This document shows, one piece after another, positions 39,047-46,639 of a DNA stretch of 64,000 nucleotides. The notes beneath the pieces were generated by a model, which had not been told where the DNA came from, made no database searches, and worked only from the letters and a program-made list of their open reading frames with translations. How positions within the stretch are numbered: position 1 is the first letter of the stretch; every line of letters begins with the position of its first letter. Where the stretch lies: sequence record PP968062.1, one strand, 5' to 3'. Source of the DNA: Pseudomonas phage HPP-Temi. The position numbers were made by a program, and so were the translations under genes.

Positions 39047-40294
39047 TTATTGAGTTAAGCGGAAAGCTTGTAAGAACAAATCATTGTTCAGCAATGTCTC
39101 TAGATTCTCTTCTGCTTGCTTGTGATGTAACTCACGCCGGCGTGCAGGGCGGAAGAATTCTAAGACAGAATCAAACATACCACGATTGTTCGAGAAATCT
39201 TTAATGATGTCATCAATAGCTTTTATGTCGTCACTCATAGCAGCTTTATCTTTAGCTGTATCAGAACGGCGAAGCTGAGCGATAAGATCACGACGCACTT
39301 TCATAATGCGTTCACGGGGATCATCGTAACGGGCAGAGAAGTTAAACTCGTCTACTTCGGCATTTATTATGATCACAAGCATAACTAGTGGGGAGAACCA
39401 CAACATAGCTAGTGCGTGGATAATCATCATGAAGTAACCGGTTTCCCGATGTTCGAGTCCGTAGTACTTATCAAACTTATGCAAACATGTGGCGAGGTCA
39501 CGACTATAACCCAAACGACTGGCAAACATATCTGCCATTTGTTCTTCACGACGCATTGCCGTAACGGGGTTATTCATCAGGTGGTGTCGTGGGGCTTTCT
39601 TATAAGCAGAAAGGATGGCACGACGCACATTGCCAACATCTGAACGATCGTTGATATAGGCTTCGTATTCTTCTGGCTTCAGGTTATCTTTGAGCCATTT
39701 GTCGGTGAAGATCTCCAACTTGAATACGTTCTGTTTCTTACCTTGCAGGATCTCGATCCCGTCAGTCAGGTAATAGTTGAGCCAAACGTAATCACCCATG
39801 TACATGAAGACGTTGAAGGTGTGACCGATTTCGTGAATCAGTGCAGCTGCTACTTCACGAATTGTAAAGCCCAGTTTCTCACTAATGAATCCCAGGGAGA
39901 TATAGACTTTAAATTTGAGTTCGTCAGCAAGACCACCTTTAACATGGACGTTCTTTACATCGATAACTGTTTCCAGTTTACGAGGGTCGTTATAGCTGTT
40001 CTCAGCGCGAAGCCGTTTGTGAGCATTATACCAAGTACCGCTGTGACCCAAGGCCATCATTTCAATACTGACGCCAGCATCCAGACCAGTATCGCCAGAA
40101 ATGGTGAAGTCGTAATTGATACCAGTTTCAGCTTTCAGTTCCGCTGTAAAATCTGTAAGGAGTTTGACCGGAATGATTTTGTCTTTTGCGTATGCTTCCC
40201 GAATCAGAGTAATGTATTTCTCCGTGATCGGGCCAATGTTGGACTTAGCTCCAACAGCTAGCATCTCTTGAGAGATAGTGAATCGGTTATACAT
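39047..40294 (-). CDS. putative membrane-anchored zinc metallopeptidase (HEIGH motif), 415 aa
   Basis: VAAALIHEIGHTFNV HExxH motif plus a TM segment, FMMIIHALAMLWFSPLVMLVIIINA. Confidence 0.5.
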   Translation of the reverse strand: MYNRFTISQEMLAVGAKSNIGPITEKYITLIREAYAKDKIIPVKLLTDFTAELKAETGINYDFTISGDTGLDAGVSIEMMALGHSGTWYNAHKRLRAENSYNDPRKLETVIDVKNVHVKGGLADELKFKVYISLGFISEKLGFTIREVAAALIHEIGHTFNVFMYMGDYVWLNYYLTDGIEILQGKKQNVFKLEIFTDKWLKDNLKPEEYEAYINDRSDVGNVRRAILSAYKKAPRHHLMNNPVTAMRREEQMADMFASRLGYSRDLATCLHKFDKYYGLEHRETGYFMMIIHALAMLWFSPLVMLVIIINAEVDEFNFSARYDDPRERIMKVRRDLIAQLRRSDTAKDKAAMSDDIKAIDDIIKDFSNNRGMFDSVLEFFRPARRRELHHKQAEENLETLLNNDLFLQAFRLTQ

Positions 40295-40354
40295 GAGAGT
40301 GGCCTACTCGTCAGTTTTATTAATCATAAAGTAAAGCTCGAATGAGAGATTACT

Positions 40355-40400
40355 GGGGTGATTAATACTACGTGTTTTAAGATTTAAAAAGGAACTCGAA
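40355..40400 (+). promoter_or_regulatory. possible early-type promoter variant (TTAATACTAC) in the divergent intergenic region
   Basis: AT-rich; about 30 nt before the ATG at 40401; one-off from TATATTAC. Confidence 0.3.
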
Positions 40401-42113
40401 ATGAGTGATGATATTTCTTTTAGTAAAGAAGATGTAGTTGGTATCGAAGCTAAACATATTACTTACGTTACCGACCGTAACCATCGCAAGCATGACTTGC
40501 ACGTTGTTAAAGAGGTCATCCATCTTAAGGACAAGCGTCGGATTCCTCGTCTCCGTTTTATTGAGGATTATGAACGTCCTTGGTGGTTGGACCCTGAGGC
40601 CAACAAGAAAGAAGGGCAACGTTCTTACACTGAGAAGAAAGACTACGAATATGAGAAGAAACTCCTCAAACGTAAGTCTACTCAAATTAACATGCCGCAC
40701 GCTATCGCTAAAGCTCTTGGTGATTACAGCATGGGTCCTAACCCACGGATGCGTCAACTGAGTCGTAGTCCTTATCTGTACGGTTCTGACGTTAGCTCTG
40801 TTTGCTATCTGAAGAACGACTATCGAATGGCTGCTCCTGATCTGATCTCTCGTAACACTGTCGCTGGTGGCGACATTGAGACCAACGTTTACGAAGATGG
40901 TAAAGATGGTGAGATCATCTGCATGTCCGTATCGTTTAAAGATAAAGTCTATCTGGCTTATCTGAAACGTTGGGTAAGTGACCTCAAAGATCCTATACAA
41001 GAAACCTTTGATGAACTGGAACGTATCCCTGAGTTGGTTGCTCTTCGTAAGGGACGTAATCTGAACATCGAGATCGAAGTAGTTGATCAACCGGTTCACA
41101 TCGTAATTAACTGCATAAAGCGTCTCCACAAATGGAAGCCTGACTTCTTCTCCTTCTGGAACATCAGCTTCGACATGAGTCGAATCCTGAAAACTCTGGA
41201 AGACGCTGGTGTTGATCCGGCGGTTGTATTTAGTGATCCGTCTGTACCGGCTAACTACAAGTACTTCCACTTCCGTCAAGATCAAGCGATGACCACTACG
41301 GCATCGGGTGTAACCAAGTCTAAAGGTCCAGAAGACCAATGGCACTGGATTACTTGCCCTGCATCTTTCCAACCGATCGATGCGATGTCTACTTACCGTG
41401 TAACTCGTCTGGCTAAAGGTAAGGAACCGTCTTACGCGCTTGATTACATTCTGAAGAAAGAACTCAACGTCGATGAAGATGCTGAGATTCTGGGTGAAGG
41501 TGATCTGGTTAAGTTCCAGAAAGGTCTCGACAAACTGTTAGCTGAACGTCCGGGTAGTTATCCTTATCTGTTCGTTAACTACAGCGGTAAAGAAGATGAC
41601 TGGACTCCGGTTGAACACTTCACTTGGGGTGACACTGTAAACCTGGGTAACCATGTTCGTTACACCATGAACTTTGGTAAGCTTAAGTTCCCTGAAACTG
41701 ATCACCTCGGAGGGATCGAATGGCACATTGAGATGCAGAAGAACCACAAGGTTCGTTATGGTCTTTACAACATCATCGACTCCATTCGTCTGGAGCAACT
41801 CGATGAGAAGATCAATGACCTTGCCAGTTCTATTACTCTGTTCTCGAAGTCTTCCGACTATAAGAACTTTAGCTCTAACCCGAAGCGTCTTTGTGACGAC
41901 ATGCACTTCTGGTATCTGAACCGTCCTGAGCCGTGTGTCATTGGTACTAGCTCTGACCAAATGGTTCACGAGCTCGATCAGTACGTAGTGGGTCACGATA
42001 GCTGGATTGTTACACTGCCTTCTTACATGGCTGGTCCGAACGGATTGAAGTGTGTTAAGGACTTACCTGATTACAAGACTTTGATCTTTAGCCACGTAGC
42101 TGATTTGGATTAA
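40401..42113 (+). CDS. DEDDy 3'-5' exonuclease-domain protein of the family-B DNA polymerase type, 570 aa
   Basis: Exo I GGDIETN, Exo II FWNISFDMSRIL and Exo III SYALDYIL at T4-like spacing. Downstream SYPYLF and WGDT weakly resemble pol motifs A and C, but the protein is too short for a full polymerase. Confidence 0.6.
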   Translation: MSDDISFSKEDVVGIEAKHITYVTDRNHRKHDLHVVKEVIHLKDKRRIPRLRFIEDYERPWWLDPEANKKEGQRSYTEKKDYEYEKKLLKRKSTQINMPHAIAKALGDYSMGPNPRMRQLSRSPYLYGSDVSSVCYLKNDYRMAAPDLISRNTVAGGDIETNVYEDGKDGEIICMSVSFKDKVYLAYLKRWVSDLKDPIQETFDELERIPELVALRKGRNLNIEIEVVDQPVHIVINCIKRLHKWKPDFFSFWNISFDMSRILKTLEDAGVDPAVVFSDPSVPANYKYFHFRQDQAMTTTASGVTKSKGPEDQWHWITCPASFQPIDAMSTYRVTRLAKGKEPSYALDYILKKELNVDEDAEILGEGDLVKFQKGLDKLLAERPGSYPYLFVNYSGKEDDWTPVEHFTWGDTVNLGNHVRYTMNFGKLKFPETDHLGGIEWHIEMQKNHKVRYGLYNIIDSIRLEQLDEKINDLASSITLFSKSSDYKNFSSNPKRLCDDMHFWYLNRPEPCVIGTSSDQMVHELDQYVVGHDSWIVTLPSYMAGPNGLKCVKDLPDYKTLIFSHVADLD

Positions 42114-42141
42114 ATATACGTAAAGATGATATTTCCTGTTA

Positions 42142-43497
42142 TTGTATACAGGAGATATTAACATGATAAATAATGACATGCGTTACTTACCTCACTCTGG
42201 TCGACGGTATATGGTCAGTCGTTGTGGTAAGGTGTATGATACGAGTGGTATTGAGATAAAGCCTAATGGTGGTAACGTCAGATTAACTTGGTTAAATGGC
42301 GACGATAGTTATTCGGTGGGCATGTTAGTAATTGTAACATACCAGCCTATATACCTACCTGATCACCTTTGGATAAAAATCGAACCTCTTCATCTAGATT
42401 GTGACCCTAACAATAATCATGTCGATAATTTGCGGTATCGTTTCGTAAATGGTAAATTGGAGTATGAAGCAATTCCAGGCTTCTACTATATTCCACATTA
42501 CACCAAATATGTAATCGATATTTACGGAAATATGCTCACTGCTGAAAATGGCAGAGATAAGACTTGGGGTTATGTAAAGTCAGATCTAGAACGTAATTCG
42601 AAAGGTGGATACAGATTTACACGAGTCGTTAATGAACCCGGTGTTAATTCTGTGCTACTTAGACATAGAGCGTTGTGTTTTGTGTTTAAACCAGTTGAGC
42701 GTGCAAGTGATTATGACTTGCTCGTAAACCACATTGATGGCGTACCAGGTAACGATAACTTAGACAATTTGGAATGGGCGACGTATGCAGAGAATAACAA
42801 GCATGCTCACGCCAACGGTCTAAGTGGTGGTAAAGCTAAAGGTGTACTGATGCGTAATATTGAAACCGGTGAACTGAGTAAATTCGCAACCACTAAAGAG
42901 GCGGCGAAAAGTCTTGGGCATGGTTCCAATGCACAAATACGACATCGCTTAAGACATGGTCAAACCATCCACTATCTCGATAATTTACAATTCAAATGGG
43001 ATGATGGTACCGACTGGCTGGATGTGGATATAACCACACCTGCTATTGAATGTAAAATCGGTACAATGATGGCTTCTCGAAATGTCTTAACTGGTGAAGT
43101 CAGAACTTTCGGATCATTTGAAGAAGGTGAGAAATTAACTGGTATTGACAAACAGACGATTGCAATTCATATTCGTGATAATCAGATTGTTCCTTTCCAA
43201 GGTTTTAATTTTGGTTGGTACAAAGAAGGCATGGAATGGCCTATTCATTCTGATATTAACATGAAGGCCTACAAGAAATATCCGACACGTACGCCTGACC
43301 CAATTATTGTGGAAGACATGATACTTGGGGATAAAGTAATCGTGGAAAGTAGGAATGAATTAGCTACTCTTCTTAAGATCAGTCCCAGTTATGCTACTCA
43401 ACTTGTGTCAAACGCAATGATTTATCAGGATAGGTACAAAATGACCTATCATCGTTTACGTGACAACATTTTAGTCCCATCAAGTTGGAATACTTGA
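42142..43497 (+). mobile_element. HNH homing-endonuclease-like gene, 451 aa
   Basis: LLVNHIDGVPGNDNLDNLEWATYAENNKHAHANG is a canonical HNH motif, and a second HNH-like block, LHLDCDPNNNHVDNLRY, is present. The gene sits free-standing right after the exonuclease/polymerase-like gene. Confidence 0.65.
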
Positions 43498-43712
43498 TGC
43501 AAACTTCTTTAATTGCCGGGGAAATCCTTAGAGACATGTACACCAAATCCATGTAGTGATACATGGACGGCCAGATTAACTACCTGGGTATGGTAAAAGA
43601 GACATGTATTGGGTGATCCGCAGCGAAGCTTCTCTCTGAGAAGAACGTTCAACGACTATCGAAACCACTGCGCAAGCAGACAAGGGAGTAGAGTAGGATC
43701 AAGTGATCCGAA

Positions 43713-44066
43713 ATGGGAAGCATCCGATCCTCGCAAGAGAAGGATGGTGATATAGTCTCCACATCCAGGGAAAGCCTGGAGCAGCACGTTATAGTGCGGA
43801 TAGAGCGTAACGAACTCTATCGAAGATACTGGATTGTCAGTACTTATCCGAACGTTAGCCAGATTCTCAACATTGCTCGGGAAACAACTGTCATGGAATT
43901 CTCCATGATGAAAGATATCTCTGAGCATCATCGTCGAGAAGTAGGGGTGAACTTAACTGGTGGTCGTGTCAACGCTATTGAGATCTGCCAGAAGATCATG
44001 AAAGCTCCGAAGTTGGATGAGATGTTGAAGCTCTACATGGAGAAGAAGGCTAACTCCCCAAAGTAA
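43713..44066 (+). CDS. hypothetical protein, 117 aa
   Basis: ORF after a 215-bp non-coding stretch. Confidence 0.4.
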   Translation: MGSIRSSQEKDGDIVSTSRESLEQHVIVRIERNELYRRYWIVSTYPNVSQILNIARETTVMEFSMMKDISEHHRREVGVNLTGGRVNAIEICQKIMKAPKLDEMLKLYMEKKANSPK

Positions 44067-44143
44067 CATATCGATGGAAACGCCGCGGAGGATACGAATG
44101 TTCCTCCGTTGGTGATAAGCGGTTCTCTGCTCTTAATGCTCAA

Positions 44144-44431
44144 ATGCCAGATGGTCGTACAATCGAGATGCACTATCAATGTGACATCAAAGGTTATGAA
44201 CCAGGTGGTACTAATTGGAAGCTTGGTAAAGGTAAACCTCCATTAGCTTCTATAAACTCCTGGGAGGCCTATTACGGGCTTTGGGAGACTTGGGCTAAGG
44301 CAAACCCTGACTTGATGAAAGAACTTCGTATAGGAGCCGATAAGAACGAAGGATATCTTTCTGATGTCTTTGCATCGACTAGTATTTCACAGGCTCGTGC
44401 TCTAGCAGAACTTTTGAACAAAGGCTATTGA
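44144..44431 (+). CDS. hypothetical protein, 95 aa
   Basis: ORF ending at a bidirectional hairpin. Confidence 0.45.
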   Translation: MPDGRTIEMHYQCDIKGYEPGGTNWKLGKGKPPLASINSWEAYYGLWETWAKANPDLMKELRIGADKNEGYLSDVFASTSISQARALAELLNKGY

Positions 44432-44469
44432 CAACATATTGCCCGGCTTAAGGCCGGGCTTTATGTCGT
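44432..44469. terminator. bidirectional hairpin (gcccggc-ttaa-ggccgggc) with CATATTG / CTTTATGTCGTT flanks
   Basis: Mirror image of the 37003 copy; at a convergence point. Confidence 0.6.
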
Positions 44470-45122
44470 TAAGCTTTACCAATCAAATCTAGAACAGGTC
44501 GCCAACCATAGTTAGCCATACCTGAATCAGCTATTTCGGTCGTGGTACCGATTAGCTGGTTATACCCGCGTGCGCGGTGAAACTGTGGATCAGCAGCGGA
44601 TTCTTCTTGGACCCAGCAAGCACTTCCTACTACAGAGGGAGCACACCCCAATTCAACATTCGTGAAACTAGCTAATACTGGATTATAGTTAGCTGACCTA
44701 CCCACGCCTAGTGGATACATCCAACGCTCCCACTCGCCACCCCAACTTATCGTGTTAGATACAACATTCTTAGTTGTACCGGTCATAACTCGAACACGAA
44801 ACTGATGTCTACCGATTTGGATGATCTTACCAAAGATAAGATCTTTCGCATTTAGTTCAGTCCATCGAATGTTGTTTCTCAATTGCTGTTTAGCAATGTA
44901 GATAAGTTTCCCGTTTTCCACCATTTTTAACCAACCGCCCGCGGTTGCAATAGGCGTACCTTCGGTGATACCAACGAGGTTAGCAAAAGCCAAAGGTCCA
45001 GGTAAGCCTTCTACAAACTCACCATAAAAGCCATGGAGAGAACTACCAGAGATAAGTTCTTGCGGGCCAGGTGGTAATGTGTCATCGTACATCTTAAGTA
45101 CGGAAAGCAATGACTCGAACAT
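44469..45122 (-). CDS. hypothetical protein, 217 aa
   Basis: ORF. Confidence 0.55.
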   Translation of the reverse strand: MFESLLSVLKMYDDTLPPGPQELISGSSLHGFYGEFVEGLPGPLAFANLVGITEGTPIATAGGWLKMVENGKLIYIAKQQLRNNIRWTELNAKDLIFGKIIQIGRHQFRVRVMTGTTKNVVSNTISWGGEWERWMYPLGVGRSANYNPVLASFTNVELGCAPSVVGSACWVQEESAADPQFHRARGYNQLIGTTTEIADSGMANYGWRPVLDLIGKA

Positions 45123-45156
45123 ATGTAATCCTGCTCTTCTAAAAACCTATACCGTT

Positions 45157-45193
45157 GACGGCATAAGCCCTCCCCGAAGGGAGGGCGTTATGT
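45157..45193 (-). terminator. hairpin (gccctcccc-gaa-gggagggc) with GGCATAAG / GTTATG flanks
   Basis: Family member. Confidence 0.55.
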
Positions 45194-46639
45194 TTATTGT
45201 ACTTGTTGGAAGTACTGGAGCAGCAGAGGCTGGCGCTTGGTCGGGAATAGGGATACCAGACTCGGAACGTCGTACTGGGTACGAGCTTCTTTGTTCTCAT
45301 CAGCGAAGATGAAGAACAGAGTCAGAATCTGGATATGGGATTCCTGCACACCACCTTGTACGCTAAGGCCGTCGGTGAAACGGAAAGCGTGGCTGTCATC
45401 AAACAGACCAGGAGATTGGCGGTTCTCGGTAATGAACTTACGAACGATCTCCATGCCATTCTTGAAGCCAATCGGATCTTCAAGGTTGATAACATAACGA
45501 ATAACGTTGTCGAGTTGCTTCTGGGCCATGACACCAGTTTGGGGAGTCAAGGGTTTGCCAGGAGCACAGATCTCTTTGTATTTCTTGAGAGTTTCTTCGA
45601 TGTAGGATTGGTTCACTTCGGTAAGTCCTTCGTAGGAGAGTTGGATACGAACAGCTTCGACGTCTACTTTCGGAGCAGCCGCAGTCGGAATAGCACCGGT
45701 CAGATGAATGGTTTCAGTGGTTTGACCAGTTTGAGCTTTGTAAGCCAGGATAACGTCTTCAGGAGCATTGCTCTTGCTAACCAGAATCAGACGCTCTTTC
45801 AGTTCAACTGCAAGAGACGGTTCACTGGTAGCACCTTCAGGCCGGATCTCACCAAGAGCCCAGCTTTCGAGTTCTTGAGTAGTCCACTGAGTTGCCTTAC
45901 GAGCAAAACGAGTGATGTCAGATTTCCAAGCACCTTTAGAAGTTTTGTCGGGAACAATACCGCTAACAAGGAACTCTTTGCACTGCTGTGGATTCCAAGC
46001 GAGGTCGAGAGTAGCTTCACGGCGTTGATGTTCAACAATAACTTCTTTCAGAACATTGTAACGAACATCTTCAACAAGCTCACCTTTGATATACTGTTCG
46101 AGTTCTTCTTTAGTCCAACCCGATACCGGAGTATCAACTAGAGGTTTGACTTCCTCAACTACCTCTGGTTCAGAAATAGCTGTGGTAGCTTCTTCTCGAA
46201 GAAGATCGACTAGAGCAGGAGTAGGTTCTGGATCAGCCAGCTCTTCTTCTGTTTCACCTTCGGGAGGAAAATCAGTAGTCTCTTCGAGATCACTTTCTTC
46301 TTCGCCTTTGGGATCATCGCCATCTTCGGCTTCAAGACGAGCTAGCTCCATCTCGGATTCCGTGTCGGTATCGAACTTATCAACAACTTCACTGCAAGTC
46401 AACATCCGACCGTCGTCATCATAGAACGCCTCACGGTGGAGTGCAGCTAGAACAGGAGCTACGACCGCTGCTACTTCGTTGTCATCATGATCTTCGAAGG
46501 CAGCTTGTAGATCTTCAAAAGAAAGGGGACCGTATTCAGCCGGAGGCTCTTGGGGAGTTTCCGGAATAACGGAGGTAACAGGCTCTACAGGTTTAGTAAC
46601 GGTAGGGATAGAGAAACCACGATTGCGATTTTTAGCCAT
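45194..46639 (-). CDS. acidic hypothetical protein, 481 aa (D/E-rich N-terminal half)
   Basis: Long ORF. Confidence 0.6.
   Translation of the reverse strand: MAKNRNRGFSIPTVTKPVEPVTSVIPETPQEPPAEYGPLSFEDLQAAFEDHDDNEVAAVVAPVLAALHREAFYDDDGRMLTCSEVVDKFDTDTESEMELARLEAEDGDDPKGEEESDLEETTDFPPEGETEEELADPEPTPALVDLLREEATTAISEPEVVEEVKPLVDTPVSGWTKEELEQYIKGELVEDVRYNVLKEVIVEHQRREATLDLAWNPQQCKEFLVSGIVPDKTSKGAWKSDITRFARKATQWTTQELESWALGEIRPEGATSEPSLAVELKERLILVSKSNAPEDVILAYKAQTGQTTETIHLTGAIPTAAAPKVDVEAVRIQLSYEGLTEVNQSYIEETLKKYKEICAPGKPLTPQTGVMAQKQLDNVIRYVINLEDPIGFKNGMEIVRKFITENRQSPGLFDDSHAFRFTDGLSVQGGVQESHIQILTLFFIFADENKEARTQYDVPSLVSLFPTKRQPLLLQYFQQVQ

Follow-up and report, generated by a model that had tools for sequence, protein, structure and literature searches.

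Introduction

The introns found in the polymerase genes of SPO1, Bastille, T7-like phages and LUZ24 represent the classical kind of such elements. In the SPO1 family, related phages share the intron together with very different open reading frames (ORFs) or with none, as PhiPA3 does here. We analysed a 64,000-nucleotide (nt) stretch of DNA of Pseudomonas phage HPP-Temi (sequence record PP968062.1; the whole stretch is hereafter called the window), a nucleus-forming jumbo phage whose relatives include PhiPA3 and the PS119XW group (Pawinskivirus). The subject of this study is one gene at window positions 40401-44066, encoding the N-terminal, 3'-5' exonuclease chain of a DNA polymerase and interrupted, with a probability that we put at about 0.92, by a mobile group I intron that carries an HNH homing endonuclease gene. 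The host protein is the exonuclease chain of the divergent, two-chain family B polymerase of the phiKZ type. Polymerases of this type consist of an exonuclease chain and a polymerase chain (PMC3201878), and have also been described as 'split subunit' (PMC5105663).

Organization of the interrupted gene

The ORF list of the window includes both frames on which the first-pass annotation was built, 40401-42113 (570 amino acids, aa) and 42142-43497 (451 aa from a TTG start). The group I intron search recommended there was positive: in an Rfam scan of 39500-46000, the model RF00028 matched at 43446-43781 (59.2 bits against a gathering score of 50; E 1.7e-13; 253/253 model positions). This was the sole Rfam match reaching a gathering score across the 64-kb window, and no second group I match was detected within it. 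The stretch 43498-43712, previously taken as structured and devoid of a credible ORF, was found to be the middle of the ribozyme core, and its proposed union with the HNH ORF into one intervening element agrees with both the RF00028 score and the covariation described below. The limit of the element had been set too early, at 43712, since the intron extends to 43832 and exon 2 to 44066. The gene is organized as follows.

40401..42110, + strand: exon 1 of the gene for the N-terminal/exonuclease chain of the family B polymerase, 570 codons, ending GCT GAT TTG GAT (A D L D)
U42110, + strand: 5' splice site, the final base of exon 1
42111..43832, + strand: group I intron, 1722 nt, opening with an in-frame TAA and closing ...ACTGG with G43832 (omega-G)
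43833..44066, + strand: exon 2, 77 codons plus stop, starting ATT GTC AGT ACT TAT CCG (I V S T Y P)

The homologue in HHBS36_1 is an uninterrupted 647-aa gene, to which the window can be aligned on both sides of the insertion, as far as 42103 and again from 43842, each side at 91% identity. Across the gap, the intronless allele reads GCT GAC CTT GAC ATC GTT TCG ACT, that is ADLDIVST (sequence VADLDIVSTYPNV; protein VADLD|IVSTYPNV), and the intronless target of HHBS36_1/PS119XW around the insertion site is GCTGACCTTGACATCGTTTCGACT, also given as CACGTAGCTGACCTTGACATCGTTTCGACTTATCC. Exon 2 of the window opens with ATTGTCAGT. When 42111-43832 is deleted from the window, the junction encodes the same peptide as the uninterrupted HHBS36_1 gene; the 5' splice site is preceded by the canonical U and the 3' splice site by G. 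Only the junction 42110|43833 restores ADLDIVST, and the boundaries derived from the intronless allele are unambiguous. Exon 1 was also aligned with exon 1 of PhiPA3 right through the splice site. The spliced product and P0094, a protein from the PS119XW group, are both 647 aa long and share 94% identity; the product also covers 3-570 of the 576 positions in phrog_3011 "DNA polymerase" (E 3e-235).

The correct annotation of the gene is join(40401..42110,43833..44066), and the 117-aa ORF at 43713-44066 is spurious, an artefact joining intron and exon 2. The same correction is due for PhiPA3 gp085 in RefSeq and for many metagenomic calls of this core gene. An intein was considered and rejected: the insertion opens with an in-frame TAA (42111-42113), and the endonuclease is encoded in another frame with its own Shine-Dalgarno sequence and start codon.

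Structure and covariation of the ribozyme

Once the endonuclease insertion is subtracted, the ribozyme part of the intron measures 368 nt. The following elements were located.

42107..42113, + strand: P1 5' strand, GGAU|UAA, pairing with the internal guide sequence UUAGUCC at 43471-43477
43471..43832, + strand: ribozyme core
43471-43477, + strand: internal guide sequence
43478-85 / 43492-99, + strand: P2
43504-09 / 43715-20, + strand: P3
43514-20 / 43617-22, + strand: P4
43526-43612, + strand: P5 with extension
43623-43648, + strand: P6
43654-59 / 43752-57, + strand: P7, forming a pseudoknot with P3
43668-79, + strand: P7.1, CUGC-GCAA-GCAG
43696-43709, + strand: P7.2, GGAUC-AAGU-GAUCC
43721-46, + strand: P8
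43764-80, + strand: P9
43784-97, + strand: P9.1
43799-43821, + strand: P9.2
43832, + strand: omega-G

Covariation was analysed for six introns of this exact site, namely those of the window, PhiPA3 and the metagenomic contigs L003, L004, L011 and L012. The structure used was named from the window sequence (P2, P3, P4, P5, P6, P7, P7.2, P8, P9, P9.1 and P9.2; 68 pairs), and in the slid controls the pairing partners were displaced by 1-3 columns. Standard pairs were formed in 87.2% of cells, against 37-45% in the slid controls, and 26/68 pairs were altered on both sides, against 3-9. The observed covariation values were attained by 0/500 shuffles. RNAalifold, run independently, finds most of the named helices, with compensatory changes at 25 pairs of 58. 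Both sides change in 4/5 pairs of P7.2 (helix 8), and P9.1 and P9.2 covary too; variation in P4 is confined to one side. P7 is uninformative in this respect because it is invariant save for one unpaired cell.

At the splice site, U42110 forms a wobble pair with G43474 in P1, as read from the sequence; this U-G wobble and the terminal G are also present in PhiPA3, L003, L004, L011 and L012. GGAT| and GTCC are retained in 6/6 introns at the site, and other synonymous positions vary. Where the intron-bearing alleles keep GGAT, the intronless allele has TGAC (CTTGAC overall). Retention of GGAT in the intron-bearing alleles, and not in the intronless one, fits a requirement for P1 pairing. A candidate P10 (GACAA at 43462-66 with exon 2 UUGUC) was not kept in the other introns and is not claimed.

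By inspection, the intron has the look of a subgroup IA2-like element, the usual phage type, as judged from P7.1 and P7.2 between the P7 5' and P3 3' strands and from P9.1 and P9.2. Intron-like sequences resembling its core occur in 251 phage records, among them the annotated Intron_gpI of phage Goslar. As for the repeated GATCCG cores pointed out in the first-pass annotation, two copies do lie within 43498-43712, at 43615 and 43705 only, with GATCC additionally at 43726. They do not constitute a repeat family: the two copies are the 3' strands of P4 and P7.2, and the GATCC belongs to P8.

Over 75 nt, the segment covering P7.1-P7.2 (window 43640-43714) shares 97% identity with unannotated DNA of the phiKZ-like phage KEN49 (L007 2501-2633), some 2 kb downstream of a gene for an RNA polymerase beta subunit; PA7, fnug and OMKO1 match the segment at 93%. 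The remainder of the intron is far less similar to the KEN49-type stretch, and the same-site intron of PhiPA3 has a different, shorter version of P7.1-P7.2. These similarities suggest that peripheral modules may have been exchanged between introns at different loci.

Recurrence of the intron at the same site in other phages

At the same position, the PhiPA3 gene is interrupted by a group I intron of 344 nt that contains no ORF (Rfam 71.7 bits; L002 5540-5883, NC_028999.1 complement 74542..74885). The RefSeq gp085 coding sequence of PhiPA3 (CDS; 608 aa) ends at the TAA of the intron, and both the intron and exon 2 are unannotated. Rfam scores of homologous introns at this site range from 45.8 to 94.3 bits. 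Four metagenomic chimallivirus contigs share the insertion codon of the window and carry both intron and endonuclease there; their 5' junctions read TTGGAT| and their 3' junctions G|AT(T/C)GT.

Eight metagenomic contigs with homologues of the endonuclease were inspected (L003-L006 and L011-L014). The endonuclease gene lies directly downstream of an ORF of 479-586 aa in 8/8 contigs, and an Rfam group I match follows it wherever the contig reaches far enough. Flanking genes are revealed in the 6/8 contigs that are long enough upstream: the gene order of L003-L005 is that of the window (gp86-like, gp85-like, then a 416-439-aa protein), and L006, L013 and L014 have upstream ORFs of comparable size without family annotation. 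Exon 1 ends ...ADLD in five contigs (L003-L005, L011 and L012) and ...HVYD, apparently at the same codon, in L006; in L013 and L014, exon 1 has diverged too far for its end to be placed. Where present in the contigs, exon 2 opens IVSTYPNV right after a G.

Truncated calls of the polymerase chain were observed to cluster at three positions near the motif-A-like segment discussed below: the first follows ADLD and is the present site, the second follows HVAD and lies two codons upstream, and the third follows HD(S/G)WI, some 35 codons upstream. Rfam group I introns are located at these positions (L015 5592-5868 and 7072-7268; L013 3786-4095 and 4152-4411; L016 5480-5822), L015 and L013 each having two introns close together. 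Because the truncations cluster there and L015 and L013 carry paired introns, the motif-A-like region appears to be an intron hot spot. The closest sequenced relatives of the window lack a polymerase intron but have an intron-like core elsewhere, between hypothetical genes (L008 2501-2634; PS119XW 44766-44899).

The HNH endonuclease in the P1 loop

Relative to the ORF-less intron of PhiPA3, the window intron carries an insertion in the P1 loop, which accommodates the endonuclease gene.

42118..43471, + strand: P1-loop insertion, 1354 nt, carrying the homing endonuclease gene
42163..43497, + strand: HNH homing endonuclease gene of I-HmuI type, encoding 444 aa if it starts at ATG 42163 and 451 aa if at TTG 42142
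42127..42160, + strand: 13-bp hairpin (-15.8 kcal/mol by RNAfold), enclosing the endonuclease Shine-Dalgarno sequence AGGAG at 42150-42154

The insertion point was read from PhiPA3 TAAATAT|TAGTCCC against window TAAATAT-ACG...ACATTT-TAGTCCC. Both GC content (0.398) and GC skew (+0.13) reach their extremes within the window at 42001-43000, which fits a foreign origin of the insertion. ATG 42163 is the better start of the endonuclease, with AGGAG (42150-42154) eight bases ahead. Translation of some T4 intron endonucleases is limited by a hairpin at the ribosome-binding site, and the hairpin at 42127-42160 may limit endonuclease translation likewise. The final 9 or so codons of the gene overlap the guide sequence and P2, with the TGA stop (43495-43497) within the P2 3' strand; this stop-in-P2 arrangement is retained in the 55%-identical homologues (the L003 and L004 equivalents).

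Identification of the second ORF as an HNH protein is supported by Pfam HNH_3 (30.1 bits, cut-off 24.8) and by a match to phrog_59 HNH endonuclease (E 1.3e-28); NUMOD1 scored 21.9 bits, slightly below its cut-off of 22.8, and the homologues bear precomputed matches to PF07453 and PF22083. Across 34 endonuclease homologues, N189, H190, N202, N211 and H214 are invariant. The AlphaFold (AF2) model, made with the 34 homologues in the alignment, had a pLDDT (predicted local distance difference test) of 90.9. In a Foldseek search of PDB, I-HmuI (1u3e_M) was the sole significant match (E 1e-9, probability 1.00, target-normalised TM-score 0.49), the next having E 0.12; a phmmer search of PDB sequences with the endonuclease was uninformative. 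Deposited phages hold no close relative, the highest identity being 31% (Goslar), followed by 28% for phiKZ gp179 and 26.5% over 73% of the query for PhiPA3 gp210. Closer homologues, with 38-59% identity, were found in metagenomic assemblies.

The host protein and its partner chain

The Exo I, II and III motifs, reported as intact in the first-pass annotation, consist of residues that are invariant in 37 homologues (D158/E160, N254/F257, Y456/D460) or nearly so (D258). The assignment to family B was likewise upheld, as the top 38 Foldseek matches of the spliced protein are chains of RB69 gp43 plus one T4 polymerase (gp43), with E down to 1.5e-12. The underlying AF2 model is good for residues 1-517 and of low confidence for 518-616. 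A family profile also matches RB69 gp43 among PDB sequences over the Exo III region (E 1.6e-4). Pfam has no model for the exonuclease chain, and phmmer of neither the spliced protein nor the partner polymerase chain against PDB sequences gave anything useful.

SYPYL and WGDT, once read as degenerate polymerase motifs A and C, are chance look-alikes located in the unconserved residues 348-426, where no column is invariant or at least 90% conserved. The true motif-A-like segment, DLD|IVSTYPNVSQILNIARET, straddles the intron. Of 120 homologues listed, 73 are uninterrupted across the insertion site, and in these 73 the segment is almost invariant. The profile aligns FahvaDlDivSTYPnvsqilNIarET with RB69 404-433 (YKYVMSFDLTSLYPSIIRQVNISPET, motif A), collinear with the exonuclease match. 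Because the alignment pairs this segment with motif A, the intron follows the codon aligned to the catalytic D411 of RB69 (D570 here). The protein ends 77 residues past the junction in the window, and about 77-110 residues past the DxD motif in the intact homologues listed. Since even intact homologues end about 77-110 residues past the motif-A-like segment, the protein is not a full polymerase. The two options offered earlier, a stand-alone exonuclease or the N-terminal part of an interrupted polymerase, are thus each partly right: the gene is interrupted, and the spliced 647 aa still do not amount to a full family B polymerase.

A palm/thumb fragment, the search for which had been proposed, was not found in the window. 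By PHROGs scan of 30 window proteins (the spliced product, the endonuclease, the 95-aa neighbour and 27 of the larger ORFs), no second DNA polymerase was detected, and neither motif B/C patterns nor a TRLISDFY-like C-terminus occur in the real genes of the window. The relative HHBS36_1, in turn, has a partner chain of 716 aa matching Pfam PF20286 'Divergent Family B DNA polymerase' (E = 0), encoded about 35 kb downstream, past the window end (L010 31243-33393; record 270242-272392). This chain contains a motif-B-like KINNNSYSG, then a motif-C-like ISDTDS, and the C-terminal TRLISDFY; by eye, no motif-A-like segment was seen upstream of motif B in the HHBS36_1 chain. Another HHBS36_1 CDS annotated 'polymerase' (record 185844-187469) was set aside, being without family B polymerase motifs and without a Pfam polymerase match. 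Motif A, in contrast to the published assignment (PMC3201878), is suggested by the alignment to sit in the exonuclease chain. The insertion site points to this motif-A-like segment, which hardly varies and stands at the C-terminal end of the exonuclease chain, and so bears on how the active site of the phiKZ-type polymerase is assembled.

Proposed pathway of splicing and homing

From the anatomy and the conservation of the element, we infer that splicing takes place, and the following pathway is proposed. The primary transcript would fold so that the exon GGAU and the first three intron bases pair with the guide UUAGUCC to form P1. Free guanosine would attack after U42110; the terminal G43832 would then dock in P7, and the exons would be joined. 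The ligated message would encode the 647-aa protein, with the invariant HVADLD-IVSTYPNVSQILNIARET restored. On unspliced RNA, ribosomes would be halted by the in-frame TAA at the intron start. The I-HmuI-like HNH endonuclease, predicted to be active and to have its target at this site, would nick or cut intronless alleles of co-infecting relatives near the insertion site, and recombinational repair would then copy the intron into the cut allele (homing).

Alternative explanations

Several points weigh against the preferred reading. P1 is short, with 4 bp of exon pairing and 3 bp of intron pairing, and no P10 pairing conserved among the six introns was found. The first 50 model positions of the Rfam alignment match poorly and are placed within the end of the endonuclease ORF. 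In a long-read transcriptome of phiKZ, no evidence of splicing was obtained, under its conditions, for the predicted phiKZ introns (PMC10914365), and therefore intron activity is not to be assumed in this phage group. For motif A, the RB69 stretch alone is not significant (domain E-value 56-260), and both catalytic aspartates were assigned to the polymerase chain (PMC3201878). From the short P1 and that one transcriptome study, the intron could be regarded as a decaying, splicing-defective relic, and the gene as a pseudogene or a truncated exonuclease only. We consider this very improbable, because the catalytic core (P3, P4, P6, P7, P8 and J6/7) is intact with compensatory changes across diverged phages, and the endonuclease ORF is intact with its catalytic residues invariant. 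Exon 2 is intact as well: it is in frame, its DNA shares 91% identity with that of the intronless relative, and no part of this core replication protein is more conserved than the segment that it completes. Even more improbable is the alternative raised in the first-pass annotation, that a free-standing HNH gene split the polymerase into separately translated pieces (570 aa and a small C-terminal peptide), which reassemble as proteins without RNA splicing. Gene callers do give separate ORFs, with ATG 43713 opening the 117-aa ORF, RefSeq shows only the truncated gp085 for PhiPA3, and the phiKZ-type polymerase is already two-chain (PMC3201878). However, a complete, covarying ribozyme core lies between the pieces, the junctions follow group I rules and exactly restore the invariant motif, and at the same site PhiPA3 has the ribozyme without the endonuclease. 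In addition, the 117-aa ORF begins with 40 codons that fall inside the 3' helices of the intron (P3 3' strand to P9.2) and are unconserved as protein, and the site is uninterrupted in the 73 of 120 homologues listed above. A simple exonuclease followed by a free-standing HNH gene had been expected if a separate polymerase existed elsewhere and intron structure was lacking; a separate polymerase was found elsewhere, the intron structure is present, and the intron reading therefore stands.

A different question is what the endonuclease does within this same anatomy. It might act chiefly as a weapon that damages the polymerase gene of co-infecting, recombinationally isolated chimalliviruses, rather than in simple intron spread. 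PhiPA3 gp210, 26.5% identical, does so against phiKZ from an intron in an RNA polymerase gene (PMC11620839), and heterologous genomes would carry cleavable sites because the target segment hardly varies even between highly diverged chimalliviruses. On the other hand, endonucleases of 38-59% identity recur with the intron at the same site, as long-term vertical descent together with homing would give, and the two roles are compatible with each other; we regard a chiefly offensive role as rather unlikely. Keeping the mobile intron as the preferred explanation, we tentatively propose, at somewhat less than even odds, a wider reading in which two polypeptides together form the active site of the polymerase, the exonuclease chain contributing the motif-A aspartate D570 and the PF20286 chain contributing motif B, motif C and the thumb. 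The junction of this split palm would be a hot spot with at least three distinct intron sites, and the endonucleases there may act in competition between nucleus-forming phages. If true, a two-polypeptide active site would revise the 2011 placement of both aspartates in one chain.

Genomic context

The best DNA matches to 40401-44500 have about 85% identity, with a maximum query cover of 58% for any record. The genes nearby, which encode virion proteins, internal head proteins and split beta subunits of RNA polymerase, are characteristic of phiKZ-like phages that form a nucleus. Just past the stop of exon 2, a hairpin GGAGGA-TACGAATG-TTCCTCC is located at 44088-44108; it is found nearly base-for-base in HHBS36_1 and PhiPA3, and is without a T-run after it.

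Comparison with known systems

In Michel and Westhof's classification, the td, nrdB and sunY introns of T4 belong to subgroup IA2. These introns are similar to the present one in having P7.1 and P7.2 between the P7 5' and P3 3' strands together with P9.1 and P9.2, and also in the in-frame stop at or near the intron start, the looped-out ORF and the ribosome-binding site placed in a hairpin. The T4 introns differ in that their endonucleases are of GIY-YIG or other types and are located in P6 or P9 loops.

Like the polymerase intron of SPO1/SP82 (I-HmuI; also Bastille I-BasI), the element described here is a subgroup-IA-style phage group I intron at a highly conserved DNA polymerase motif, and it carries an intron-borne HNH endonuclease, for which I-HmuI is the sole significant fold match. 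The host differs, being a family A polymerase in SPO1 and here the exonuclease chain of a family B (T4/RB69-like) polymerase in a Gram-negative jumbo phage. I-HmuI is a protein of 174 aa, whereas the window endonuclease of 444 aa has about 140 extra N-terminal aa and several small helix-strand modules after the HNH domain. In further contrast to the SPO1/SP82 intron, the endonuclease ORF of the window sits in the P1 loop, and nicking is here putative. In the records examined, this element and its site were unannotated, and no description of them was found in the papers that could be searched. A mobile intron with an HNH endonuclease in a polymerase gene is a well-known kind of selfish element.

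With respect to the phiKZ-type two-chain polymerase described by Kazlauskas and Venclovas in 2011 (PMC3201878), the host protein corresponds to the separate 3'-5' exonuclease chain, and the HHBS36_1 partner chain ends with TRLISDFY as described there. The nearest counterpart among nucleus-forming phages is the gp210 intron of PhiPA3, located in an RNA polymerase beta-subunit gene (PMC11620839). Both are group I introns with homologous HNH endonucleases in nucleus-forming chimalliviruses, and in each the insertion point immediately follows the codon for a conserved catalytic aspartate in the gene of an essential polymerase. The two differ in the host gene, an RNA polymerase subunit as opposed to the exonuclease chain of a DNA polymerase. 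Unlike the window intron, the DNA polymerase intron of PhiPA3 itself is without an endonuclease. Nucleus-forming phages are the current model for intron-endonuclease competition between viruses (PMC11620839). To this model, the replicative polymerase adds a second essential target, with a divergent endonuclease family kept at one codon, and provides a ready test case.

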